Shown here: one piece after another, positions 5,311 through 17,516 of the stretch
Layout of the letters: the number at the start of each line of letters is the position of its first letter
Numbering within the stretch: position 1 is the stretch's first letter
Source of the DNA: Dehalococcoidia bacterium
GTDB lineage: Bacteria; Chloroflexota; Dehalococcoidia; DSTF01; RBG-16-68-14
NCBI GenBank assembly: GCA_040882355.1
Contig: JBBEBM010000047.1
Coordinates: 62,001-87,725, forward strand
Direction of reading: 5' to 3'
DNA length: 25,725 bases
The notes under the pieces: model-generated
The model's database searches: none
What the model was told of the DNA's origin: nothing
The model's input: the letters and a program-made list of their open reading frames with translations, nothing else
Program-made: the position numbers and the translations under genes

Positions 5311-6420
5311 CTACGAAGGCACGTCGAAGGGCGTCTTGAAGCCGTCCGGCTCGTACGCCCCCAGGACGATCAGCTCGAACGGGCCGTAGCCAACCTTGTC
5401 GCCCACGCGGTACTCGCAGACCGTCTCCGTCTGGACGTGGACACGCTCGACTGCGTTCGGGTCGTTCAGGTCCCAGCGTTCGCCTTCGACGACGAGCGGG
5501 CCGTGGTACTGCCCGCCTCGCCAGCCACTGGTGTAGGCGTAGCCGGCACCCTGCATGAAGAGGAGGCGCTGCGGACGCGCCTCGATGACGAGCTCGCGGC
5601 CGTCCGGCCCTTCGAGCGTGAGGGAGCCGCCGTCGAAGACGCGCGTGCCCGGCTTCATCTTGATGTCGTGTCGCACAACCCGGAGCTGCTCGGGCTCGCG
5701 CTCGCTTTCGTAGGGGAAGGCGCGCACGGCGATCTCGTGCCAGCGCCGGCCGTCCGTCTCCTCCGAGACGCTGTACAGGATCGCCGAGTCGTCGAACTGG
5801 ACCGGCGCCCAGTTCCAGTAGAAGCCGCCCATGCGGCCGTCGCCGGACGGCGCGCTCGCCGGCTCGCGGTCGCCGACGGGGCGGATCCCCCACGAGCGGT
5901 CACGGGCGCCCCAGAACGCCTCCGGCGTCACGTCGTAACGCTTGTCGCCGACCGTGAGCGTGCCTTCCCAGCGCCCGACCTGGGTCAGGCGCGTGTAGTC
6001 CATCACCACGCGATTGCCCGCGCGGCGGAAGAAGTGCGGCTCCTGGAACGGGAAGTGAGCGCCCTCGAAGGTGAGGTCGAAGTCCAGACCCCACTCGTTC
6101 GGCTCGCAAGCGACGCGCAGGCGGCGCAGCCCTTCGAGCACCTCGATGTGGATCGGCCCGGCGTTCGTCGCCGCCCGGTCGTGGCCGAGGGCGCGTGAGG
6201 CGCGCACGACCCACTGGGCGTCGCCCTGCGTGGCCGTCGCGAACGCGTCTATGACGCCGATGTTCGGGAAGACGCCGAGCGCCACGACGAGAAAGACCTC
6301 GCTCTTCAGGTCGAAGCAGGAGAAGTAGTAGCGGTCGTAGAAATTGCGGTCGCTCGTCGCGGCGCGGTCGAGCGTCTCCGCGGTCTGGTGGATCGGGTAG
6401 TCGTCGAAGGGGGTGAGCAC
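5311..6420 (-). CDS. Conserved hypothetical protein (tocopherol-cyclase/lipocalin-like beta-rich family)
   Basis: GGAGGAGG SD before GTG; LTPFDDYPIHQT, DRNFYDRYY and RDRSWGIRPVG motifs; strongly GC-biased third codon positions. Confidence 0.8.
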   Translation of the reverse strand: MLTPFDDYPIHQTAETLDRAATSDRNFYDRYYFSCFDLKSEVFLVVALGVFPNIGVIDAFATATQGDAQWVVRASRALGHDRAATNAGPIHIEVLEGLRRLRVACEPNEWGLDFDLTFEGAHFPFQEPHFFRRAGNRVVMDYTRLTQVGRWEGTLTVGDKRYDVTPEAFWGARDRSWGIRPVGDREPASAPSGDGRMGGFYWNWAPVQFDDSAILYSVSEETDGRRWHEIAVRAFPYESEREPEQLRVVRHDIKMKPGTRVFDGGSLTLEGPDGRELVIEARPQRLLFMQGAGYAYTSGWRGGQYHGPLVVEGERWDLNDPNAVERVHVQTETVCEYRVGDKVGYGPFELIVLGAYEPDGFKTPFDVPS

Positions 6421-6492
6421 GTCCTCCTCCTGCTGAGCTTCGCGCGACGCGGGTAGTGTAGCGGGAGAAGGGGTCTGAGCGAAATGCGACGT

Positions 6493-6693
6493 CTATGCAG
6501 CCGACCGGTGAGCCGTTGGCTCGATCGGGCGCGCTTGGGGCGCAGGACTGGGTGTCGACTGGGCGGGGCGGCCCGCGGGGTCCTGCATCGCGGCCGCGAG
6601 CAGCTCGCGGTCAGGCAACCCGCCGCCCACGGCGAAGTTGTATGCTACGAACCCGATTGTGTTCGCGAATCTCTGCAGCGGCGTGGTCTCCAT
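6493..6693 (-). CDS. Small hypothetical protein (66 aa)
   Basis: GAGGAG SD about 7 nt before the ATG; occupies an otherwise empty intergenic region; ends in RSAA. Confidence 0.55.
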   Translation of the reverse strand: METTPLQRFANTIGFVAYNFAVGGGLPDRELLAAAMQDPAGRPAQSTPSPAPQARPIEPTAHRSAA

Positions 6694-6811
6694 CAGCTAT
6701 CTCCTCGACTGTTCGATTTCCTTCACTCCCCACGATACGGGACGACCGGGCTGCGCGGGTTACCGGCCTGTGTCACTCTGGTTAACGATGTGTTACGCCG
6801 CCGACGAACGC

Positions 6812-6837
6812 AGGGGCCGGCGCGAACCGCCGCCCCT
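6812..6837 (-). terminator. GC-rich hairpin downstream of the surface-protein gene (possible terminator)
   Basis: AGGGGC-CGGCG / CGCCG-CCCCT stem; no clear U-tract. Confidence 0.4.
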
Positions 6838-6860
6838 CGTGGCTTGTGAACTTGTGGGTG

Positions 6861-7874
6861 CTAGCCAGCTCGGCCCTTCATCAGCGCGTAGCCCGCAGCG
6901 AGCGCTCCTGCGAGGCCGAGGGCGCCCAACGCGGCGAAGCCGACCAGGCTATCACTGTCGGCGCTGCCTGAGGTCGGCCCGCCGGTGGGCGGGAGCTGGA
7001 TCGACTCCTCGGTAGCGGTCGGCTCCGGCTCTTCGGTGGCAGTGGCAGTCGATGTGGGCGGAACCACAGCGACGAAGCTCCCGGCCTGCAGGAACACCGC
7101 CGAGTCGTAGCTCTCGTCGCTCGCGTCAGCGATAGCCAGCTTCATGTGGTTCGTCGTGCCGGGCGTCGCGGCGGACTGACAGGTGAGCACCGTCGTCAGG
7201 CCGTCCATCTCCGTGTTGATCGACCCGCCGCCGTCGTCCAGGTCGTTGTTGCGATAGAGCTCGGCATGAGATGGCGTCGGGTCTTCGCCCGTGTCCGGGT
7301 TGCCGTTGTTGATCGTGTTGACCGACACCGGATCGCTGTCCACCATCGCGCAGTTCTCGCCGTTGATGAAGAACGCGAAGACATCGTTGAACTCGGTGTT
7401 GACGTACTCGTTGTACTCGTCGGAGGCGAAGACGTACTGGAACGCGACCGCGTCCGTGTTCGGGACGAAGTCGAACTCCAGCACCGACGCGTCGAACGTC
7501 TCGAAGCCGGACAGCGCCTCCAGGTCCGTGTCGCCCGCGCTGCCAAAGGACGTGGTGATGCTATCGTCCACGTTGGGCCCGACGACGGAGCTGACGGCGC
7601 CTGAGCTGAGGATGACGCCCGAACCGAAGCCGATGATGTTAGCGGCGCCGGTGAACTCGCCGCCTGCCGCCTCGTCGCCGGTGTAGGTGACGTTGGAGAT
7701 GGCGATGCCCTCGCCTACCAGGTCGTTCGCCAGGTCGGACGGTTCGAGGGCTCCCGTGAGGTCGTCGACCGTGAGCGCCGAGCCGGCCTGGGCGCTCATC
7801 GCGACGAACATCGCGACGATGAGCCCGACGACGAGCGCCAAACTGGTGGTGATCGTGAGGTTTCGTGGCCGCAT
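6861..7874 (-). CDS. Secreted surface protein with choice-of-anchor L domain and C-terminal LPxTG-like sorting signal
   Basis: Signal peptide ending ...MSAQA; GVILSSG, DASVLEFDFVP, YVFASDEY.EYV...FNDVFAFF and KLAIAD.SD..YDSAVFL motifs; P/T-rich linker; LPPTGG followed by a hydrophobic helix and KGR. GGAGGGA SD favours ATG 7874. Confidence 0.85.
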   Translation of the reverse strand: MRPRNLTITTSLALVVGLIVAMFVAMSAQAGSALTVDDLTGALEPSDLANDLVGEGIAISNVTYTGDEAAGGEFTGAANIIGFGSGVILSSGAVSSVVGPNVDDSITTSFGSAGDTDLEALSGFETFDASVLEFDFVPNTDAVAFQYVFASDEYNEYVNTEFNDVFAFFINGENCAMVDSDPVSVNTINNGNPDTGEDPTPSHAELYRNNDLDDGGGSINTEMDGLTTVLTCQSAATPGTTNHMKLAIADASDESYDSAVFLQAGSFVAVVPPTSTATATEEPEPTATEESIQLPPTGGPTSGSADSDSLVGFAALGALGLAGALAAGYALMKGRAG

Positions 7875-8055
7875 AGTGGTTCCCTCCATACTACGGCGTG
7901 CTCGCCAAGTCCTAACGTTGCTGTCAAGAGTATCCTGCCTGTCGCCTTGAGGGTCAATACTGAAGTACGAGTATCCCAGGCCAGGCGTAGCGACGGCGTC
8001 GAAGGGCGCGCTATCATACGGCTAACGTTCCGTCGCGAAGCTGAAGGAGCCGCTC

Positions 8056-8901
8056 ATGACCACCGCCGTCGAGCCGCGAGAGCACACCGTCGAACTGCGC
8101 GGGCTGCGCTTCCACTATGTCGAGTGGGGCGAGGGCCGTGCGACGGGCGGCGCGCCGCCAATCGTCATACTGCACGGGCTGAGCAGCACGGGCCGCATCT
8201 GGGACGGCCTCGCGCGGGCGCTGCAGGACCGCTATCACCTCTTCGCGCCGGACCAGCGCGGCCACGCGGCGACGTCGTGGCCCGAGGCCGCCGACTACAC
8301 CACCGACGACCTGGTGGGTGACGTGGAGGCGCTCGTCGAGGCTTGGGGGCTCGACCGCTTCGTGCTGATCGGCCTCTCGATGGGCGGCATGAACTCGATG
8401 GCCTACGCAGCGCGCCACCCGGAACGCGTGACGCGCCTCATCGCCGTCGACATCCCGCCCAGGGTGCACCGCGACCTCGACCCGATGCGCCCCTTCTACA
8501 AGAAGATCGCCGAGGAGGGCCACCCGACGTTCGACTCGCCGGACGACGCGATCAAGCTGATCCGCGCGACGAACACGATCACGTTCGACGAGGCGCTGCG
8601 CCACCGGCTGCGCTACATCCTGAAGCAGCTCCCGGACGGCCGCTGGACGTATCGATCCGACCCGCGCATCAGCTACCATTGGACGCCCGCCGACTTGTGG
8701 GACGAGCTGTCGAAGATCACGGCGCCGACGCTGATCGTGCGCGGCGGCCAGTCGAACGTGCTCAAGGAATCGACCGTCGAGAAGATGCTCGCCGCCCTGC
8801 CCAACGGCCAGGCCGTCTGCATCGAAGCAGCGGGCCACACCGTGCCCGAAGACACGCCTGCGGAGTTCATCGCGGCGGTGGAGGCGTTCCTGGCGGGCTA
8901 G
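8056..8901 (+). CDS. Alpha/beta fold hydrolase
   Basis: HG oxyanion motif, DQRGH, nucleophile elbow GLSMGG, C-terminal AGH; AAGGAG SD. Confidence 0.92.
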   Translation: MTTAVEPREHTVELRGLRFHYVEWGEGRATGGAPPIVILHGLSSTGRIWDGLARALQDRYHLFAPDQRGHAATSWPEAADYTTDDLVGDVEALVEAWGLDRFVLIGLSMGGMNSMAYAARHPERVTRLIAVDIPPRVHRDLDPMRPFYKKIAEEGHPTFDSPDDAIKLIRATNTITFDEALRHRLRYILKQLPDGRWTYRSDPRISYHWTPADLWDELSKITAPTLIVRGGQSNVLKESTVEKMLAALPNGQAVCIEAAGHTVPEDTPAEFIAAVEAFLAG

Positions 8902-9700: not shown

Positions 9701-9755
9701 AGCCTGGCCGATGACCCGAGGTCGGTAACAAGGTGCCGAGGAGGTGGGAAGAACG

Positions 9756-10784
9756 ATGGCAGTCTGGCTAGTGCGCGCCGGTGGACTGGGAGAGAGCGAA
9801 GACATTGCTCTCGACAACAACGTGGTGGTAATTGGCTGGCCTGAGTTAGGCGATTTGTCTCGGATCCAGACGCGAGAAGAGTTGGACGGGCTCTGTCGCG
9901 AGACGTTTCCGGATGCCAATCGGTCGAAGATTGCAAACTGGGTCGGCCAACTCTGGGCCTTTCGGGAACGGATCGAGCCGGGCGACTTGGCCGTTCTTCC
10001 ACTAAAGCGCCGTGCGGCCATCGCAATTGGCCGCGTCACAGGCACGTACCAGTATCGACCTGACTTGGCACAAGACGCGCGGAACACGCGCTCTGTGGAG
10101 TGGCTCGTTAAGGACCTCCCACGAAACTCTCTCGAGCAGGACATCTTGTACTCCCTTGGGGCCTTCATGACCGTCTGCAAGATCTCGCGGAACAACGCGG
10201 AGGAGCGGATCAAAGCAGTGTTGGAAGGTAGACCGCCACCTCGGGCGGCGTCCTCGGAAGGCGAGGCCGGTGAAGAAGGCCCCAGGATTGATGGCGAGCC
10301 ACCGGAAGACATCGATCAGTTTGCTCGCGATCAGATCCTCACGTTCATCGGTCGCAGGTTCCGAGGCCATGCCCTAGCTACGCTTGTCACCGCTGTTCTC
10401 CAGGCGCAGGGTTACAAGACGGAGATGTCGCCTCCAGGCGCTGACGGCGGTGTGGACATTACGGCAGGACGCGGGCCCATGGGATTCGACACTCCGAGGC
10501 TGTGCGTGCAGGTCAAATCAAGCGACAGCCCGGTCGACGTAAGGGTTCTCCGAGAGCTGCAAGGAGTCATGAAGAATTTCGGGGCCGAACAAGGGCTGCT
10601 TGTGGCCTGGGGTGGCTTCAAGGACTCGGTTGCGAAGGAGGCCCGTCAACGCTTCTTTGAGCTCAGGCTGTGGGACTCGGGCGACCTGGTAAGAGCGCTG
10701 CTCGAATTCTACGACCAGCTTCCTGAGGACCTACAGGCCGACCTACCGCTCAAGAAGATATGGATTCTTGTGCCTGAGGAGTAG
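9756..10784 (+). CDS. Mrr-family (type IV-like) restriction endonuclease
   Basis: N-terminal WLVRAG...VVIGW domain; C-terminal GADGGVDI...CVQVKS Mrr_cat D-(Q)xK motif; GAGGAGGT SD before ATG 9756. Confidence 0.88.
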   Translation: MAVWLVRAGGLGESEDIALDNNVVVIGWPELGDLSRIQTREELDGLCRETFPDANRSKIANWVGQLWAFRERIEPGDLAVLPLKRRAAIAIGRVTGTYQYRPDLAQDARNTRSVEWLVKDLPRNSLEQDILYSLGAFMTVCKISRNNAEERIKAVLEGRPPPRAASSEGEAGEEGPRIDGEPPEDIDQFARDQILTFIGRRFRGHALATLVTAVLQAQGYKTEMSPPGADGGVDITAGRGPMGFDTPRLCVQVKSSDSPVDVRVLRELQGVMKNFGAEQGLLVAWGGFKDSVAKEARQRFFELRLWDSGDLVRALLEFYDQLPEDLQADLPLKKIWILVPEE

Positions 10785-10844: not shown

Positions 10845-11732
10845 TCATGCATCTCGGCCCGCGTCGCGTAACGCTCCCCCCTGCCACGAGACGGTCGCGA
10901 GCGGGTGGCGGTCGAGGGGGAGGGCGAGGCGGCCGTCCGGCTGCGGTTCGAGGCGCTCGGTGAGGGCCTCGCGCAGGCGCTGACGGCGCGCGGCGTCGTC
11001 GCCGGCGGCGACCGTCTCGGCGAAGCCCTCGACCGCCACGTCGAGCGATGCGTAGCCGCGCGGCGTCTCCACCCACGCGACCTCCACGTTGGCGTAGCAG
11101 CCGAGCTGGTGGAGCAGGTTGACGGCATCGATGTAGGTCGGCTGCGGCAGGCGCGGCTGCTCGTGCACCGCCGCCCACAGCCCGATCGAGTCGAACCAGG
11201 GCTGCCGCACCATCAGGTGCAGGCAGCAGAGGCGCCGCGCGTGGGCGTCGAGGGCGCGCAGGAACGGCGCGACGTCTTCGATCGGGTAGAGGACGTGGGC
11301 GGAGATGACGACGTCGGCCTCCGGCGCGTTCGCGGCGATGTCGGGCCATGCGCCCTCGATCACGTCGACGTTCGTCAGGCCCTGCTCGGCGGCGTCCTCC
11401 CGAAGGAAGCGCAGCATGGCCGCCGACGGGTCGACGGCGGTGACGCGCCTGGCGTAGGGCGCCAGCGCGACGGTGTGGCGACCGGTGCCGGCGCCCACGT
11501 CGAGCACGGTGTCCTCGGGCCGGAGGCGGCGCAGCACGTACTCCAGGAACGGGTCGCCCGCCGCGCTCGCGTCCTTGGCGAACCGGCGATAGCTCTCGGC
11601 GCGCCGCGCCCAGTAGTCGTCGGTCGTGCGACCCTGCGCGGCGCAGGCCGCGTCGTGCTGCTCGCGCCTGGCGACGACGATGCGCCGCCAGCGGTCGACG
11701 TGGTCGATGGGCTCGGGCGAGGACGACGTCAT
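10845..11732 (-). CDS. Class I SAM-dependent methyltransferase
   Basis: VLDVGAGTG motif I, AVDPS and DVVISAHVLY. Confidence 0.9.
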   Translation of the reverse strand: MTSSSPEPIDHVDRWRRIVVARREQHDAACAAQGRTTDDYWARRAESYRRFAKDASAAGDPFLEYVLRRLRPEDTVLDVGAGTGRHTVALAPYARRVTAVDPSAAMLRFLREDAAEQGLTNVDVIEGAWPDIAANAPEADVVISAHVLYPIEDVAPFLRALDAHARRLCCLHLMVRQPWFDSIGLWAAVHEQPRLPQPTYIDAVNLLHQLGCYANVEVAWVETPRGYASLDVAVEGFAETVAAGDDAARRQRLREALTERLEPQPDGRLALPLDRHPLATVSWQGGALRDAGRDA

Positions 11733-11812: not shown

Positions 11813-12367
11813 TTAGCCGGTCGCGCGGAGCGGGCGCTGCCGACCTGCGAGGAGGTCGAGCGCGGCCTGGGCCGAGGCCGGCGTGCTCACGCCGAGGGCG
11901 TCCTGAACGGCGAGCCCGTCGCAGAGGGCGAGCAGCGCGCCCGCGGTCGATGAGTCGAAGAGCGCCGTGAGCTGCTCGCGCCACGCGTCGTACGCCTGCG
12001 TGAGCGCGGCGCGCACGGATGCGCTGCGTTCCGCCTGGGCGACGAACTCGACGAAGAGCCGCGCATCCTGCCCGGACGAGCCCAGCGCCTCCACGGCGCC
12101 GCCCAGCCCTGATGAGCGCCGGCTAGCGTCCGCGAGCCGCTGGGTGCGCGCGCGGCCCCAGCCGTCGATGAGCAGGAGCAGCGCCTCCTCCTTCGACTCG
12201 AAGTGGAAGTAGAAGGCGCCCTTGCTCACCTCCGCCGCCTGGGCGATGTCGTCCACAGTCGCCCCCTGGTAGCCGAGTACGGCGAAGACGCCTCGCGCCG
12301 CCTCGATCAGGCGGTGGCGGGTGCGCTCCGCGCGGAGCTGCTGTAGAGGGCCTTTCCTGGCTGTCAT
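11813..12367 (-). CDS. TetR/AcrR family transcriptional regulator
   Basis: TRHRLIEAA...GYQGATVDDIAQAAEVSKGAFYFHFESKE helix-turn-helix. Confidence 0.93.
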   Translation of the reverse strand: MTARKGPLQQLRAERTRHRLIEAARGVFAVLGYQGATVDDIAQAAEVSKGAFYFHFESKEEALLLLIDGWGRARTQRLADASRRSSGLGGAVEALGSSGQDARLFVEFVAQAERSASVRAALTQAYDAWREQLTALFDSSTAGALLALCDGLAVQDALGVSTPASAQAALDLLAGRQRPLRATG

Positions 12368-12567
12368 TGGGCTTCTCTAGAAGTATCGTCCGCCAGCTTC
12401 TTTCCGCGAAATGCTGCTGACACCGCTTCAGAAGGTCGAAAAACCCTTAGGGGGAAACCCTGTAACGACAGCGTCCTTGAGGCGTTAGTGCTTTGGTGCC
12501 AAGGAACGGCCCCCGCCATTCAGGCGAGCAGTAGCGGCAGGGAGCGCCTGACAATTTCATATCGAGG

Positions 12568-12660
12568 CGTCGACAAAGGGCAAACCCTTCGAAAGAGGGG
12601 GGCGCAAAGCCACGGGCCTACCGCTCGCAAGAGGAGTCAGGGCCGCCGGGCTGCCGAATC
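12568..12660 (+). ncRNA. Cyclic di-GMP-I (GEMM) riboswitch aptamer
   Basis: GGGCAAACCCTTC-GAAA-GAGGGGGGCGCAAAGCCACGGGCCTA...GGCCGCCGGGCTGCCGAA matches the Vc2-type architecture (GGCAAAC, GNRA loop, CGCAAAG junction, GGCCUA receptor). G at the position-20 equivalent. Confidence 0.93.
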
Positions 12661-12768
12661 GCCAGATTTGACAACCCCACCCCTTCGCTCCTCACCAAGC
12701 GCCCTACTCGTCCGAAGTCGCACGAGTCGCCGCCGCTGGTCGCCACAGGCGGCCGAGGGGGAACGAAC

Positions 12769-13491
12769 ATGGCCACGCGAGAAGAGACGATCCTGCAGCA
12801 CCTGCCGCTGGTGGCGTTCGTCGTGAACCGGCTCTCCGCCGACCGGGCCCGGACGCTGGGCTTGGACCGCGAGGACGCGATGAGCTACGGGATTGAGGGC
12901 CTGATTCAGTCCGTGGACGCCTTCGACCCCAGCCGGGGCACCAGCTTCGCCAGCTTCGCCGTGCGGCGCATCCGGGGCTCGATCCTGGATGCGATCCGCC
13001 GCCAGGACCCGCTGCCGCGCTCGCTGCGGCGCAGCACCCGCGAGGTGGAGCACACCGCGCAGGAGCTGGCAGCCCAGCTCGGCCGCTGGCCCACCACCAA
13101 GGAGCTGGCAATCCGAATGGGCACGACGCCCGACGCCGTCCAGGAGGTCCAGAAGCATGCCTCGTCGCGCTTTGTTTCGCTTGAGCACGTCCTCCAGGAC
13201 CGCTCGGGCGACGGCGGGAGCCAGCGCTGGGACCCTGTCGACGAGGACGAACGGGGCGACCCGGCGAAAGCTGTCGAGCGGCGCGCCTCGCTCTCGCTCC
13301 TCCAGCTCGCGGTCGACCACCTCAGCGAGCGGGACCGCGCCATTCTCCAGCTTCGCTACGGCGAATCTCGCCCCTTCCATGAGGTGGGCCGCATGCTCGG
13401 TCTCTCAGAATCGCGGGTCTGTCAGCTTCACAAGCGCATCCTGGGCCAGCTTCGCAAGCAGCTCGCAGTGGCGCTGGAGGAAGCGGCGTAG
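12769..13491 (+). CDS. fliA: RNA polymerase sigma factor, FliA/WhiG (sigma-28) family
   Basis: HLPLV, YGIEGLIQSVDAFDPSRG, RIRGSILDAIRRQDPLPRS and region-4 LGLSESRVCQLH; GAGGGG SD. Confidence 0.92.
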   Translation: MATREETILQHLPLVAFVVNRLSADRARTLGLDREDAMSYGIEGLIQSVDAFDPSRGTSFASFAVRRIRGSILDAIRRQDPLPRSLRRSTREVEHTAQELAAQLGRWPTTKELAIRMGTTPDAVQEVQKHASSRFVSLEHVLQDRSGDGGSQRWDPVDEDERGDPAKAVERRASLSLLQLAVDHLSERDRAILQLRYGESRPFHEVGRMLGLSESRVCQLHKRILGQLRKQLAVALEEAA

Positions 13492-13507
13492 CATCAGGCC
13501 AATTCCG

Positions 13508-13536
13508 CTACAGGGGGCTTCCGAATCTGCCGATAA
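13508..13536 (+). promoter_or_regulatory. Sigma-28-type promoter upstream of the HD-GYP gene
   Basis: Perfect consensus -10 GCCGATAA (13529-13536), with CTACA 16 nt upstream. Confidence 0.7.
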
Positions 13537-13581
13537 CAAAACAGAGGCGCCTAACGGCCTCGTCCGCGGCGCCGCGCCACG

Positions 13582-15063
13582 ATGAACGAGAGGCAATCTC
13601 GGCTGCCGCTCCCGACGAACGGCCAGCGAGAGGCAGGCGAAACGCTCGCTGAGCCTGAGCTGCCCTCGCATCCTGTTAGCCCGACCCAGGCGTCCAGCGA
13701 ACGGCTGAACTGGCGAGTCGCCCTGTACATCGCCCTCGTAGTAGCAGCGGCCGCACTTTGTGTTTGGTACTACGCCCCCCGGACGACGACCGAAGGCTGG
13801 CAGGGCTTCGTCGCGCTGATCATCCTGGCGATCGTCTTCGAGCGTGTCGGCATCCAGATCTACGGCGAAACGCACGTTTCGGCCGGCGTGGTCGCGCTCT
13901 TCGCCATCTCGATCCTGTACGGCGCTCCCGGCGTGACCATCGCTGCGCCGCTGGTCGTGCTGGCGGCGGAGACGCGAACGCGCAGTCCCTGGTACGGCCG
14001 CTTCTTCGACATGAGCAGCTACACGCTGGCGAACGTCGCCTCCGCCCTCGTCTTCCACGTACTGATCGACATCGACAGCGGCGTGGACGGCTGGTGGGTG
14101 CCGGCGGCGATCATCGCCATCGCCGCGAACTACGCGGTCAACATTCCTATCGTGAGCATCGAGGTCAGTCTCGAGTCCGGCGAGTCGTCAGTGGCGGTCT
14201 GGCGAGAGCAGCACCAGTGGCTGGTGCCTTACTACCTGGTCTTCGGACTGCTCGCGCTGGCGCTGGCGACGGCCTACGCGGCCCTCGGCGTCTGGGGGAT
14301 CATGGCGTTCGTGGCGCCGCCGCTCATGATGCGCTTTGCCCTTCACCAGTTCGTGAACAAGACGGAACAGACGGTGCTGGAGCTGAAGCAAAAGAACAAC
14401 CAGCTCGAGGCCGCGAACAGCGACATTCTGGAGATGACGCGCCAGCTCACCGAAACGTATGGTGGAACGCTCGAGGCGCTCGTGCTGGCACTCGACGCAC
14501 GCGATCGCGAGACGAAGGGCCATTCGCTCCGCGTCGCAGATTACGTGATGGCTGTCGCTCGCGAGCTGGGCATGAGGGAGGGCTCGCAGGAGTGGGTCGA
14601 CACCCAGCGTGGCGCGTTGCTGCACGACGTCGGCAAGATCGGCGTGCCTGACCAGATCCTCCACAAGCCGGGCCCGCTCACGCCTGAGGAATGGGACGAA
14701 ATGAAGCGCCACCCGGGCATCGGGCATGAGATGCTGCACGACATCGCCTTCCTCTCTGGGGCTGCCGAGATCGTGCACGCCCACCACGAGCGCTTCGACG
14801 GGAAGGGCTACCCGCGCGGACTATTGGGCGACGAGATTCCCCTTGGCGCCCGGATATTCGCCATCGGCGATACGCTGGACGCCATGACGTCGGACCGGCC
14901 GTACCGGAAGGCGCTGCCGGCGGAGGTCGCTCGCTGGGAGATCTTGCGGCACAGCGGCACACAGTTCGACCCGCAGGTCGTGCAGGCGTTCTTGCTGGTC
15001 TTCGACCAGTTGGCGAAGAAGGCGGAAGAGGACCACGAAGGGGAGCACGTGAGAGCTGCCTAA
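13582..15063 (+). CDS. Membrane-anchored HD-GYP c-di-GMP phosphodiesterase with multi-TM N-terminal sensor and coiled-coil linker
   Basis: About 6-7 hydrophobic helices, then TKGHSLRV, LLHDVGKIG, HHERFDGKGYP, D.LDAMTSDRPYR and GTQFDP; catalytic motifs intact. Confidence 0.93.
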   Translation: MNERQSRLPLPTNGQREAGETLAEPELPSHPVSPTQASSERLNWRVALYIALVVAAAALCVWYYAPRTTTEGWQGFVALIILAIVFERVGIQIYGETHVSAGVVALFAISILYGAPGVTIAAPLVVLAAETRTRSPWYGRFFDMSSYTLANVASALVFHVLIDIDSGVDGWWVPAAIIAIAANYAVNIPIVSIEVSLESGESSVAVWREQHQWLVPYYLVFGLLALALATAYAALGVWGIMAFVAPPLMMRFALHQFVNKTEQTVLELKQKNNQLEAANSDILEMTRQLTETYGGTLEALVLALDARDRETKGHSLRVADYVMAVARELGMREGSQEWVDTQRGALLHDVGKIGVPDQILHKPGPLTPEEWDEMKRHPGIGHEMLHDIAFLSGAAEIVHAHHERFDGKGYPRGLLGDEIPLGARIFAIGDTLDAMTSDRPYRKALPAEVARWEILRHSGTQFDPQVVQAFLLVFDQLAKKAEEDHEGEHVRAA

Positions 15064-15085
15064 GACGGCCCCCAACCAGACAACA

Positions 15086-15117
15086 AGAAGCGCGGCAAAC
15101 GCCGCGCTTCTCTCTTT
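15086..15117. terminator. Intrinsic terminator (probably bidirectional) between the HD-GYP gene and the convergent peptide gene
   Basis: Perfect 11-bp stem AGAAGCGCGGC / GCCGCGCTTCT with a 4-nt loop, followed by CTCTTT. Confidence 0.8.
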
Positions 15118-15146
15118 GCAGCCGTTGGGACGTGCGCCCCGCTACC

Positions 15147-15245
15147 CTACCACCAGCGGCGGACGCCGAGGACGGTGGAGGCGTGCGGCGCGAGCGCTGC
15201 CGCTGCCAGCAGAGCCACCGCAGCTACTGTCCAGATGAGCTTCAT
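15147..15245 (-). CDS. 32-aa signal-peptide-like small protein MKLIWTVAAVALLAAAALAPHASTVLGVRRWW
   Basis: ATG 15245, TAG 15147-15149; SD AAGGAAGGGGG upstream; own promoter upstream and terminator downstream; below the ORF-track size cutoff. Confidence 0.75.
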   Translation of the reverse strand: MKLIWTVAAVALLAAAALAPHASTVLGVRRWW

Positions 15246-15274
15246 TGCTCTACCCCCTTCCTTGCCAACGTTCT

Positions 15275-15317
15275 GACCAGTCAGTCTTGTTCTATGTCAA
15301 CTAGACCGACCTGTCAA
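15275..15317 (-). promoter_or_regulatory. Sigma-70 promoter of the peptide gene with two TetR-type operator boxes
   Basis: Minus strand TTGACA (15317-15312)-N17-TAGAAC (15294-15289). Boxes GACCGACCTGTC (15304-15315) and GACTGACTGGTC (minus strand, 15286-15275) overlap the -35 and +1 regions. Confidence 0.65.
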
Positions 15318-15423
15318 CGATTGCGTGGCAAGAGGCTGCGCTAGGGGTCACTTAGGGCTTCGGTAAACTGATGCTGCGGGACTCGCGTCGCGCTCGAGCC
15401 GAGTCCGCCAGGCAGGAGGTTGG

Positions 15424-16248
15424 CTAGGCGGAATGCTCCCAGCGCTGCCGCCGCCTGTCGCGCTCCAGACGGGCCGCGTTGAGGTCATCGACCGCTGCGG
15501 TGAGGGCCTCGTCGGGGTCCGGCGACTGTGCATCGCACACGGCCATGCCGGCGCAGATGCCGATCCAGAGAGGCGTGCTCCGCTTGCCGCGGCGCACGGC
15601 CACAGAGTCGCGAGCCAGGCGCTCGTGGAGTCGCTGGATGAACGAGCGCGCGCCAGCCGCCCCGCAGTCCGGCAGGACGAGCGCGAACTCATCGTCGCCC
15701 ATGCGGGCCACCATGTCGTTCTGGCGTTTGGTTTCGAGTAGGCAAGAAGTCACGTGGAGCAGGACGCTATCACCGGACGGCGGGCCGAACTGCTCGTTGA
15801 TGCGGGAGAGGTGGTTGATGTCGATGAGCACGACCGCTACGTGGCTACCCGAAACCTCAACGAGGCGGGCTTCCTCCAGTAATCGCTGCGAAAAGAGGTG
15901 GAACGTGGGCAGACCGGTCAAGGGATCGACAGGGTCGGCGCCCGGCTTCAGTTCTGCCAGGTTCGGTACCTGGACGAGCGTGGTCTCCTCGTCGTCTTCG
16001 TCCTCGCGTGGCGCGCGGAGCAGGAGGAATCCAGCACAGAGCAGCAGCAGCGAGATCCCCGCTAGCGCTCCTACCATCTGGAGAGGCAGGTCGAGCAACT
16101 CCTGGACCAGGAAGCCGGCTAGCAGCGGCGTCAAGGCCAGCACGGGCACCAGGACACGCCACAGCGCATCGCCGGACTGGGAACGCCGTCGAACGGTCGT
16201 ACCCGGGCCCGCTACCCGGACTCTGCTTCGCGCGTGTTCATCGCCCAT
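15424..16248 (-). CDS. Two-TM GGDEF-domain protein with degenerate A-site (GDDEF) and intact RxxD I-site
   Basis: DPLTGL, VLIDIN...IN..FG...GD and RQND-MVARM-GDDEF; two N-terminal hydrophobic helices. Confidence 0.88.
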   Translation of the reverse strand: MGDEHARSRVRVAGPGTTVRRRSQSGDALWRVLVPVLALTPLLAGFLVQELLDLPLQMVGALAGISLLLLCAGFLLLRAPREDEDDEETTLVQVPNLAELKPGADPVDPLTGLPTFHLFSQRLLEEARLVEVSGSHVAVVLIDINHLSRINEQFGPPSGDSVLLHVTSCLLETKRQNDMVARMGDDEFALVLPDCGAAGARSFIQRLHERLARDSVAVRRGKRSTPLWIGICAGMAVCDAQSPDPDEALTAAVDDLNAARLERDRRRQRWEHSA

Positions 16249-16275
16249 GGCGCAGGGTGCACACTCCTACTAGGA

Positions 16276-16304
16276 TCATCGGCAGCGGTGGTCCCAAGAT
16301 ATAG
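16276..16304 (-). promoter_or_regulatory. Sigma-28-type promoter upstream of the GGDEF gene
   Basis: Minus strand CTATA-N16-GCCGATGA, the same spacing as the promoter before the HD-GYP gene. Confidence 0.55.
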
Positions 16305-16320: not shown

Positions 16321-16348
16321 TTGACAGACGACTGGGAGACGCTATGAT
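16321..16348 (+). promoter_or_regulatory. Sigma-70 promoter for the Cys-rich gene and flavodoxin
   Basis: TTGACA (16321-16326)-N16-TATGAT (16343-16348). Confidence 0.6.
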
Positions 16349-16382: not shown

Positions 16383-16928
16383 ATGCAGATCGACTGGGAT
16401 AAGACACTCGAGGAGATCCTGGCCGACAAGACGGCCTGCCCGCGCTGCGGCAGCTTCACGGACGACATCGTGGCTGGCTATACGCGTGAGACCTGGGGCG
16501 CCGAATACGCGCCTCGCTGCCAGTTCTGTAATCGCCGCGAAGACTGCGATGCGCGCAAGCTGGTCGTGCTCTGCGAGGGCTGCGCCCGGGAGCTTGGCCT
16601 GCGCTCTCGAAAGGTCGACCAGGAGACCCTGATGTCGATGCTCCTGAACGACTGTCGCAAGGACCTCGAGGAGTGCCTGGACTATCTAGCGGAATACTGG
16701 CAAGAGGACCTGGACGTCCCGCCCGACGAGACGAACAAGCGTTTGGAGGAGTACGATCCGGAGGTCTTTGGCGAGGAGGACGAGGCCCGCCAGCGGCTGG
16801 AGGAGGAGTACCTGACCTACCATCGCTGGTTCCGCGATCACCACCTCCGCCTCCCTGAGCCGGCCTGGCGTGCCGAGTACGCGGAGGAGATCCTGGCTCT
16901 AGGCTACTCGACGCTGCTGGGTGACTAG
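16383..16928 (+). CDS. Hypothetical Cys-rich (probable Zn-binding) acidic protein
   Basis: CPRC, CQFC-x5-C and CEGC motifs plus an acidic helical C-terminus. Start moved to ATG 16383 (GGAG SD) because ATG 16344 lies inside the -10 box. Confidence 0.8.
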   Translation: MQIDWDKTLEEILADKTACPRCGSFTDDIVAGYTRETWGAEYAPRCQFCNRREDCDARKLVVLCEGCARELGLRSRKVDQETLMSMLLNDCRKDLEECLDYLAEYWQEDLDVPPDETNKRLEEYDPEVFGEEDEARQRLEEEYLTYHRWFRDHHLRLPEPAWRAEYAEEILALGYSTLLGD

Positions 16929-16997: not shown

Positions 16998-17516
16998 ATG
17001 GCCAACGCCGTCCGCGTCCTCCTGCTCTTCGATTCGCGCGGCGGGCTCACCGAGCAGCTCGCCGAGGCGATCGCTGAAGGCGTGCGCGCCGTCCCCGGCA
17101 CGGAGCTGCGTTACCGGCGCATCGATGAAGCCGATCAGAAAGAGCTGTTGGAGATCGAGGCGCTGATCCTCGGCTCGCCGAACTGGAGCGGCATGACCGG
17201 CAAGCTAAAGGACTGGATGGACCACAGCGGCGACCTCTGGGAGACGGGCGAGCTGGCCGGCAAGGTAGGCGCATGCTTCACGGCGGGCTGGTCGCGCTCC
17301 GGCGGCACCGAAGCGACGCTGCTCCAGCTCATGCACCTGATCCTGTCCCACGGCATGGTCTTCGTCGGCTTACCGTGGAGCGCGCTGATGCGCCGTTCCG
17401 GCTCCTACTACGGCGCGACCGCGCACGGTGAGGTGGCAGAGGACGACCGCGAGCAGGCGCGCGCGCTGGGCCGGCGCGTGGCGGAGACGGCTCTCCACAT
17501 GGCGACGGTCCGCTAA
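16998..17516 (+). CDS. Flavodoxin-like NAD(P)H-dependent oxidoreductase, WrbA family
   Basis: DSRGGLTEQLAEAIAEG, LILGSP, LAGKVGACFT, SGGTEATL and HGMVFVG. Confidence 0.88.
   Translation: MANAVRVLLLFDSRGGLTEQLAEAIAEGVRAVPGTELRYRRIDEADQKELLEIEALILGSPNWSGMTGKLKDWMDHSGDLWETGELAGKVGACFTAGWSRSGGTEATLLQLMHLILSHGMVFVGLPWSALMRRSGSYYGATAHGEVAEDDREQARALGRRVAETALHMATVR

Follow-up and report, generated by a model that had tools for sequence, protein, structure and literature searches.

Control of the sigma-28 family by cyclic di-GMP (c-di-GMP) has so far been described at the protein level, as in RsiG-WhiG, or indirectly, via a riboswitch on a flagellar operon. In Clostridioides difficile, the OFF-type c-di-GMP-I riboswitch Cd1 lies 5′ of the flgB flagellar operon, which contains sigD. 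In the RsiG-WhiG system, c-di-GMP inhibits a sigma-28-type factor through an anti-sigma protein (PMC8325347, PMC13595943), the Streptomyces case being covered in PMC13595943. The available text of these papers also describes predicted WhiG promoters before pilus genes and diguanylate cyclase or phosphodiesterase genes in Rubrobacter (PMC8325347), and two sigma-28 paralogs per genome in many taxa (PMC13595943). Here we analyze a stretch of 25,725 nucleotides (nt) from a Dehalococcoidia bacterium of the phylum Chloroflexota, hereafter the window, in which a c-di-GMP-I riboswitch directly precedes a gene for a FliA/WhiG-family (sigma-28-type) sigma factor, followed by a gene for a membrane HD-GYP protein. 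We propose, with a probability of roughly 0.55, that this locus represents a conserved c-di-GMP module of an uncultured Dehalococcoidia order, with a sigma factor gated by an OFF riboswitch and positive feedback through the phosphodiesterase.

As in the C. difficile Cd1 case, where high c-di-GMP lowers the expression of a sigma-28-type factor, the riboswitch here is predicted to be of the OFF type. In contrast to the large flagellar operon controlled by Cd1, in which sigD lies far downstream, the sigma gene is the first behind the aptamer in this locus; the module also lacks flagellar genes, and the conserved predicted targets of the sigma factor are c-di-GMP genes. The aptamer belongs to the same class as the GEMM-I riboswitches found before GGDEF, EAL, HD-GYP, pilus and adhesin genes, but here it precedes the gene for a transcription initiation factor and thereby adds regulation at the level of transcription. 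With RsiG-(c-di-GMP)-WhiG of Streptomyces and Rubrobacter, as presented in the available text, the locus shares a sigma-28-family factor under c-di-GMP control in non-flagellated bacteria and GCCGATAA-type promoters before c-di-GMP turnover genes (PMC8325347). Whereas RsiG is an anti-sigma protein of Actinomycetota, the module uses an RNA aptamer in the sigma gene's own leader, in Chloroflexota, and riboswitches receive no mention in the available text of either WhiG paper (PMC8325347, PMC13595943). Within the portions covered by the one library searched, no description of a c-di-GMP riboswitch directly 5′ of a fliA/whiG gene was found.

The window (G000:C47:62001-87725) belongs to a genome of 3.33 Mb in 82 contigs, with 67% G+C and 93.9% completeness, and was compared with 60 relatives from five families (f1 to f5) of one Dehalococcoidia order. 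For synteny, the flanks of 55 sigma orthologs and of four extra paralogs in f2 were compared, about 7 kb in either direction, with the proteins of the window mapped on. Counts cover published relatives; an unpublished f5 genome (G044), which also carries an aptamer at its sigma gene, was left out. An earlier reading of the window (the original prediction) had listed the parts of a peptide, c-di-GMP and sigma-28 circuit, and domain, Rfam and motif checks recovered every part where that reading had placed it. The co-conservation that it had left to a synteny search is also seen for most of the parts in the five families of the order; because of this conservation of the layout, chance can be excluded as its origin. 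The missing flagellar and flgM genes, noted for the window, extend to the whole 93.9%-complete genome, in which searches for flagellin and FlgM gave no match. That reading overlooked three elements considered below, namely an extracytoplasmic function (ECF)-type promoter, a 181-residue protein and a second TetR regulator that is the divergent neighbor of the peptide gene in other families.

The aptamer (12569..12659, plus strand) matches the c-di-GMP-I family RF01051 with 76.4 bits, against a gathering score of 35. It also passes RF03167 (68.3 bits versus 59, E = 1.9e-14), in which one junction column, we assume, names the GGC variant. The junction letters CGCAAAGCC agree with the RF01051 consensus, unlike the RF03167 consensus CGCGAAG. 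The window reads GCGCAAAGCC at this column, that is CGCAAAG, where the RF01051 consensus is ACGCAAAgCc; the G of the GGC variant is absent from it despite the passing model score. The A present in the CGCAAAGC junction is the canonical one, presumably the ligand-intercalating A47 in the numbering of Vc2. On account of this A, the aptamer is assigned from its sequence to the canonical c-di-GMP-I class, with predicted ligand binding. Seven c-di-GMP-I aptamers were found genome-wide with RF01051, and all seven carry CGCAAAGC or CGCAAAAC.

In f1, f3, f4 and f5, all 42 published loci that could be assessed have an aptamer 80-250 nt 5′ of the sigma ortholog. These comprise the window with 15/15 further loci in f1, 12/12 in f5, 2/2 in f4 and 12/12 assessable loci in f3, where two further loci are truncated by contig ends and stand outside the count. 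The predicted gating of the sigma gene by c-di-GMP is thus supported by a riboswitch directly 5′ of the sigma ortholog at every assessable locus of four families. Immediately before the aptamer, a conserved leader segment (GGCAGGGAGCGCC-TCACAAC-like; 12536..12568, plus strand) is nearly invariant in 17 f1/f4 leaders and, judged by eye, partly complementary to the 5′ strand of P1. The weakest of the seven genomic aptamers (G000:C59:4082-4164, 39.3 bits) is preceded by CTCTCACAACCGAATAG, which resembles the f1-conserved CCTCACAAC..ATA just 5′ of the sigma gene's aptamer and may be a shared aptamer extension.

The transcript itself appears to start further upstream, at a promoter-like element TGTAAC-N16-CGTTA (12461..12487, plus strand) about 100 nt 5′ of the aptamer. 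Its TGT.A and CGTT letters are invariant across 17 aligned f1/f4 leaders. The element is also seen in f3 and f5 and is matched by a regular expression in 11 of 14 f2 ortholog leaders, the remaining three having GTAAC...CGTT. An RNA stem was considered for TGTAAC...CGTTA and rejected: across the 17 leaders the interior shows no consistent covariation, and the boxes are therefore read as a DNA element. The element looks like an ECF-type promoter of the sigma operon, conserved in all five families, the ECF label being our assumption from consensus sequences. If this assignment is true, the sigma-28-type factor would sit under an ECF sigma factor, as a cascade.

The gene behind the aptamer (12769..13491, plus strand) encodes a 240-residue FliA/WhiG-family sigma factor (TIGR02479, 192.3 bits; cut-off 189.6) in which Sigma70_r2, r3 and r4 are all matched. 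Its best solved relatives are 6pfv and 6pfj (E = 1e-36), which we take to be WhiG chains, and FliA chains come next. The cut-off of the WhiG equivalog NF004935 is missed, with a score of 165.3 versus 343. Orthologs with 53-80% identity are present in 57 of 60 relatives. In two of these (G027:C1:1474494-1475193 and G046:C1:19494-20205), the sigma ortholog is split into two overlapping frames, which may be frameshifts or assembly errors.

In the window, the sigma gene is directly followed by the gene for a multi-pass membrane HD-GYP protein of 493 residues (13582..15063, plus strand; HD_5, E = 2.4e-35), an arrangement shared by 48 of the 53 relatives' loci that could be assessed. The HD and HHERFDGKGYP motifs of this protein are intact, as are HD and HHExxDGxGYP in 43 of 44 orthologs, and the protein is predicted to be an active phosphodiesterase. 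The N-terminal half is hydrophobic and may be distantly related to MASE9, which scores below threshold (21.0 versus 24.3 bits). The five loci without HD-GYP all belong to f1, where the gene for the 181-residue protein comes next after the sigma gene. In one further locus (L067, G002), the HD-GYP ortholog is in two pieces without the GYP motif, possibly through a frameshift or an assembly error.

The sigma and HD-GYP genes are separated by a predicted sigma-28-type promoter (CTACAG, 15 nt, GCCGATAA; 13508..13536, plus strand), with the -10 box at 13529-13536. This promoter was part of the original prediction, and its -10 pattern [CT]CGAT[AG][ACT] is found between the two genes in 47 of 49 loci, spanning all five families; the two exceptions are one-base variants. 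A -35 element CTAC.G, 15-16 nt upstream of the -10 box, is common to f1 and f5. For a related 8-letter pattern, the background expectation is 0.19 per 260 nt. GCCGATAA fits the flagellar/WhiG -10 consensus as quoted in the available text of PMC8325347. That a sigma-28-type promoter drives the HD-GYP gene is thus supported at the sequence level.

The identity of the sigma factor that reads this promoter has to be weighed against a second FliA/WhiG paralog (35-42% identity), which is present in nearly all relatives and, in the window genome, on contig C52. This paralog might read the GCCGATAA promoters, in which case the gated sigma factor would have another regulon and the adjacency would reflect operon-like clustering without a direct loop. 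The presence of two paralogs in nearly every genome speaks for such an arrangement, and the differing -35 elements (CTAC.G at the HD-GYP gene in f1 and f5; TAAA at the GGDEF gene in f3 and at two other riboswitches) would fit two specificities. Nevertheless, we consider it quite improbable: the promoter lies within about 40-150 nt of the sigma stop codon in all five families, and the -10 box is decayed in f1 loci without HD-GYP, which together argue for a tight functional link with this sigma factor. The neighborhood of the C52 paralog itself (L124, G000:C52:31714-46415, at about 5660-8160) contains a CsrA gene, genes for two response regulators and a gene of 328 residues without annotation, but no flagellar genes. 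A TGCCGATAC box, of the sigma-28 type with a TAAA -35, is found 121 nt upstream of that CsrA gene.

The sign of the switch depends on the expression platform (12660..12768, plus strand), which comprises a C-rich tract complementary to the Shine-Dalgarno (SD) sequence (anti-SD; 12680-12686), a hairpin and the SD sequence GAGGGGG (12755-12761). With the aptamer structure enforced, the minimum-free-energy fold pairs the tract with the SD sequence; in the unconstrained fold, the tract pairs with the 3′ half of the aptamer. When the aptamer is sealed off, 13 of 16 f1 leaders show lower SD accessibility, one shows no change and two show an increase. No intrinsic terminator (a GC hairpin with a U-run between aptamer and start codon) was found in the window or in the 16 f1 leaders. 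Of 24 leaders in f3 to f5, 13 contain a free-standing hairpin that is followed by a U-run and lies at some distance 3′ of the aptamer. For the 5′ strand of each of these 13 hairpins, the best competing pairing is with aptamer sequence rather than with the spacer. A free-standing terminator with the aptamer as its competitor corresponds to an OFF-switch layout. A more specific anti-terminator, formed with the 5′ end of the aptamer, was tried and dropped, since this pairing beats shuffles at 0.05 in just 4 of the 13 leaders; the weaker statement of a partner inside the aptamer was kept. On these models, the riboswitch would be OFF-type rather than ON-type with a likelihood of roughly two in three.

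The same module with an ON-type riboswitch would behave differently, in that high c-di-GMP would induce both the sigma factor and the phosphodiesterase, giving a negative-feedback homeostat or a pulse generator. c-di-GMP-I riboswitches of both signs exist, a phosphodiesterase induced by its messenger would make a sensible homeostat, and the fold-based support for the OFF sign is modest. However, the f3 to f5 terminators are free-standing with their strongest competitor inside the aptamer, the anti-SD tract of the window is freed when the aptamer is enforced, and high c-di-GMP inhibits the sigma-28-type factor in both known cases. An ON-type switch therefore appears rather unlikely.

Under the OFF-type reading that we favor, transcription would start at the ECF-type promoter and yield a leader carrying the canonical c-di-GMP-I riboswitch. 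This riboswitch would gate the FliA/WhiG-like sigma factor via the ribosome-binding site in f1 and via an intrinsic terminator in the sister families. Bound c-di-GMP would most likely lock the aptamer, so that the anti-SD tract is freed or the terminator forms. At low c-di-GMP, the sigma factor would be made and, acting at GCCGATAA-type promoters, would transcribe the genes for two membrane proteins, the adjacent HD-GYP protein and a GDDEF protein. The phosphodiesterase would then keep c-di-GMP low, a positive feedback that could act as a commitment switch; the peptide, a small membrane protein, would be an accessory part, as would one or two regulators of the TetR family. In this scheme, the parts, their conservation and the motifs of promoters and riboswitch are shown by the sequences, whereas we infer the sign of the switch, the sigma factor reading the promoters, the activity of every enzyme and what the peptide does.

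Several observations weigh against it. Five f1 genomes have lost HD-GYP yet keep the riboswitch and the sigma gene, and f2 keeps the sigma gene, the promoter and HD-GYP without a c-di-GMP-I aptamer. The second FliA/WhiG paralog of the genome and of nearly all relatives could read the GCCGATAA promoters. The OFF sign derives from thermodynamic folds, with SD effects that are small in many leaders and reversed in 2 of 16, and the complementarity of the terminator 5′ strand to the aptamer 5′ end exceeds shuffles in only 4 of 13. The module is also without a canonical cyclase. Together with the 15 GGDEF-domain hits above the Pfam cut-off and the six further c-di-GMP-I riboswitches elsewhere in the genome, this speaks against the earlier description of the circuit as self-contained. 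The closed feedback loop that had been proposed survives in part: the leader architecture suggests an OFF switch and thereby makes positive feedback plausible, but either of the two sigma-28 paralogs may read the promoters.

The GDDEF protein named in this scheme is a GGDEF-domain protein of 274 residues with two transmembrane segments (15424..16248, minus strand; E = 8.4e-26, 91.1 bits). It reads GDDEF in place of the GG[DE]EF active-site motif, which is absent from the window protein, and has an upstream RxxD I-site. The two motifs lie five residues apart (RQND-MVARM-GDDEF), with K/R-R-x-x-D in orthologs. A degenerate motif with upstream RxxD is shared by the window and 14 of 17 orthologs (13 GDDEF, 1 ADDEF); in the other 3 of 17, a regular expression for the GDDEF-type motif found nothing. 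Judged by these motifs, the protein probably senses c-di-GMP instead of synthesizing it. Among the relatives, 20 loci, all from f3 and f5, have the gene in the same place; the window is the only f1 locus to carry it. The sigma-28-type promoter that had been proposed for it (16276..16303, minus strand) consists of GCCGATGA at 16276-16283 and TATA 16 nt upstream. GCCGATGA lies 35 nt upstream of the GGDEF start, the -10 pattern recurs in 15 of 17 relatives in addition to the window, and a canonical TAAA -35 precedes the gene in f3.

On the far side of the GGDEF gene lies the gene for an order-restricted protein of 181 residues (16383..16928, plus strand), with a Cys-rich N-terminal part and a helical C-terminal domain. 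It had been listed as orf194 with a start at ATG 16344; the alignment of 34 orthologs places the true start at 16383, and the upstream ATG is overlapped by a sigma-70-type promoter (TTGACA-16-TATGAT; 16321..16348, plus strand; 11/12 consensus matches). Such a site is unique between 11700 and 17000, where shuffles average 0.3, and a TTGACA...TAGTAT counterpart is seen in f3. Six Cys residues are invariant (C19, C22, C49, C55, C64 and C67); identity averages 74% per column, with high conservation of the C-terminal half. The AF2 model (predicted local distance difference test score, pLDDT, 84.3; predicted template modeling score, pTM, 0.80) combines long antiparallel helices with a small N-terminal part that contains strands, and the protein is classed as a putative Zn-ribbon/helical protein.

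Database relationships of the 181-residue protein are confined to its own lineage. There are 66 representatives of the family among 1.84 billion, of which only two are full-length clusters, and the ESM Atlas search returned only the protein's own Chloroflexota cluster. Searches against Pfam and NCBIfam gave no match, a sequence profile against the PDB gave nothing below E = 0.25, and Foldseek of the model against the PDB gave nothing at E<=0.001. The VIA wide fold search yielded only generic helical-bundle matches, to residues 78-181, the best Z of 8.5 lying in the common range, and the N-terminal part was barely covered.

This protein underlies a further alternative, in which it would be the key partner, a new anti-sigma factor or co-factor, with control mainly post-translational and the riboswitch secondary. 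It is the most constant neighbor, found downstream within the fetched locus in 35 relatives, including five loci without HD-GYP. In 56 of 61 genomes it is encoded by a single gene. That gene has a sigma-70-type promoter to itself, the protein is confined to the order just as the module is, and FlgM was not found in the window genome. The distribution, however, does not follow the sigma factor strictly: the protein is present in G036 (a single contig) and G023, where a sigma ortholog was not found, and was not found in G019 and G026, which have the sigma factor. Nor does it show sequence or specific fold relation to known anti-sigma factors, and the RsiG c-di-GMP motif, as we take it to be, is not visible in it by eye. 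Complex prediction for the sigma factor with the 181-residue protein gave a score of 0.00, which weighs neither way. On balance, we regard a leading role for this protein as unlikely, and control through the riboswitch remains the reading that we favor. Downstream of the 181-residue gene, the window carries a flavodoxin/FMN-reductase-like gene (16998-17516), likewise found in several f1 relatives (82-86% identity).

The peptide of the original prediction is encoded between the HD-GYP and GGDEF genes by a 32-residue open reading frame (ORF; 15147..15245, minus strand), preceded by a GGAAGGGGG SD sequence and by TTGACA-N17-TAGAAC. It is a real gene under purifying selection by the substitution pattern: the ratio of nonsynonymous to synonymous substitution rates (dN/dS) is 0.10-0.34 in 19 of 21 pairs, one of the others being saturated and one nearly identical. 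No family was found in Pfam or NCBIfam. With a basic N-terminus, a stretch of some 20 hydrophobic residues and a tail resembling APxxLGxRW, the product is, as judged from sequence, a small single-pass membrane protein. With a widened profile, 14 occurrences of the ORF are recovered, of which 8 are in f1 (the window among them), 1 is in f4 and 5 are in f3. All of them are antisense and just 3′ of HD-GYP, and none was detected in f5, f2 and one f3 genus. Among f1 loci, all those that have HD-GYP and extend far enough downstream contain the ORF, and the peptide gene is divergent from the second TetR gene wherever the latter is present. It is absent from the five f1 loci without HD-GYP, which one deletion of adjacent DNA would explain equally well. 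Conserved adjacency is the sole argument for the proposed modulation of the phosphodiesterase by the peptide, and the secretion and quorum-like behavior suggested earlier are not supported. Between the convergent HD-GYP and peptide genes lies a two-way terminator-like hairpin with T-runs (15087..15117, both strands), of which the terminator scan reported the minus-strand form only (15103-15089), the other form being read from the sequence.

The predicted promoter of the peptide gene (15273..15317, minus strand) combines a -35 TTGACA (15312-15317), a -10 TAGAAC (15289-15294) and a palindrome CTGACCAGTCAG (15273-15284). The TTGACA -35, a strong SD sequence and a palindrome at the predicted start site are common to homologs in six f1 relatives. 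TTGACA is invariant, and the palindrome (ACTGACyGGTCAG; TACCGGTA in one genus) is kept in 7 f1 loci. Of the TetR-like boxes proposed here, what stands is this short palindrome, conserved in relatives but below the threshold of the repeat finder, which reported one unrelated repeat near the promoter. The arrangement resembles that of MgrB and PhoQ, in which a single-pass protein of about 30 residues is encoded beside a multi-pass signaling enzyme, a likeness in layout only. Small membrane proteins are also described for C. difficile c-di-GMP riboswitch regulons in the available text of PMC13724677. The peptide gene here is set apart from both by its own sigma-70-type promoter and palindromic putative operator.

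A distinct solution appears to be used in f2, where no RF01051 aptamer was found at the sigma gene in 14 of 14 ortholog loci, including that of G024 in a direct Rfam scan. Eleven of 15 f2 genomes are without any RF01051 match, and the listed matches of three others lie off the sigma gene's contig or far away. In place of the aptamer, a different conserved RNA lies between the same ECF-type promoter and the sigma gene (L103:6868-6994, plus strand, and 13 further loci). A closing helix GGGAUGCG/CGCAUCCC surrounds two hairpins, and a downstream GCCUCGC can pair with the SD sequence or with GCGAGGC inside the element. The long-range helix is 85% paired, versus 27-57% with the partner slid; six pairs show compensatory changes, and none of 500 shuffles scores as high. 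With a covariance model built on the core, matches were obtained in 18 of 21 f2 genomes, one in each apart from two in G054, which has two sigma copies. All matches with known sigma coordinates lie just 5′ of the sigma gene; in four genomes (G061, G062, G064 and G065), the sigma gene is unmapped. The notion of a multi-copy riboswitch was rejected, given the single match per genome at the sigma leader, and Rfam returned nothing for the leader even at E<=10.

The f2 leader is thus a candidate new cis-regulatory RNA with a predicted SD-sequestering platform. A far-reaching version of our proposal would combine the riboswitch-gated sigma-28 factor and its own phosphodiesterase loop with tuning by the peptide, through the membrane domain of the enzyme, and by the 181-residue protein as a new kind of anti-sigma factor. 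In this version, the three-way-junction RNA of f2 would be a new riboswitch class for c-di-GMP or a related signal. We regard this full combination as doubtful.

Further features flank the module. A TetR-family regulator (TetR1; 11813..12367, minus strand; Pfam TetR_N, E = 3.4e-14, 52.8 bits versus 24) is divergent from the sigma operon and reaches no cut-off among the NCBIfam equivalogs, the best being a ScbR-type model (69.8 bits versus 150). Divergent homologs occur in 31 relatives' loci (7/15 in f1, 12/12 in f5, 2/2 in f4, 10/10 assessable in f3 and 0/14 in f2), and the second TetR gene lies between HD-GYP and GGDEF in f3, f4 and f5. No inverted repeat was found in the TetR-sigma spacer at the thresholds of the repeat finder. 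Upstream of the module, the window encodes an Mrr-type restriction endonuclease domain protein (9744-10784) and a class I methyltransferase (10845-11732), the latter a conserved upstream neighbor in f1 and further off in f5.

Elsewhere in the genome, the genes behind the other six aptamers encode a GGDEF protein, a TadE/G-VWA protein and large proteins without annotation. Two of these riboswitches (G000:C19:34460 and G000:C32:10174), one of which heads the TadE/G-VWA gene, lie behind predicted sigma-28-type promoters, TAAA-N16/17-G[CT]CGATAC, as seen in the window genome. Targets that have both such a promoter and a riboswitch would be under feed-forward control. A type IV pili regulon was also considered and rejected: the window genome has a sigma-28-type box before a PilB/MshEN ATPase gene, but only 19 of 61 genomes contain a PilB ortholog, and just 4 of the 20 upstream regions carry the box.

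The module thus places an RNA sensor directly on a stand-alone sigma gene in non-flagellated Chloroflexota, which is the new element here. The only predicted targets of this sigma factor with phylogenetic support are the neighboring c-di-GMP genes. Our analysis also offers parts for further work, including the conserved 32-residue membrane protein, the putative Zn-ribbon protein specific to the order and the unclassified structured leader that takes the riboswitch's place in f2. If the loop works as proposed, it would constitute a compact feedback switch of defined parts that could be rebuilt in a model host. It would also provide a first handle on lifestyle regulation in this uncultured order of soil and sediment bacteria.

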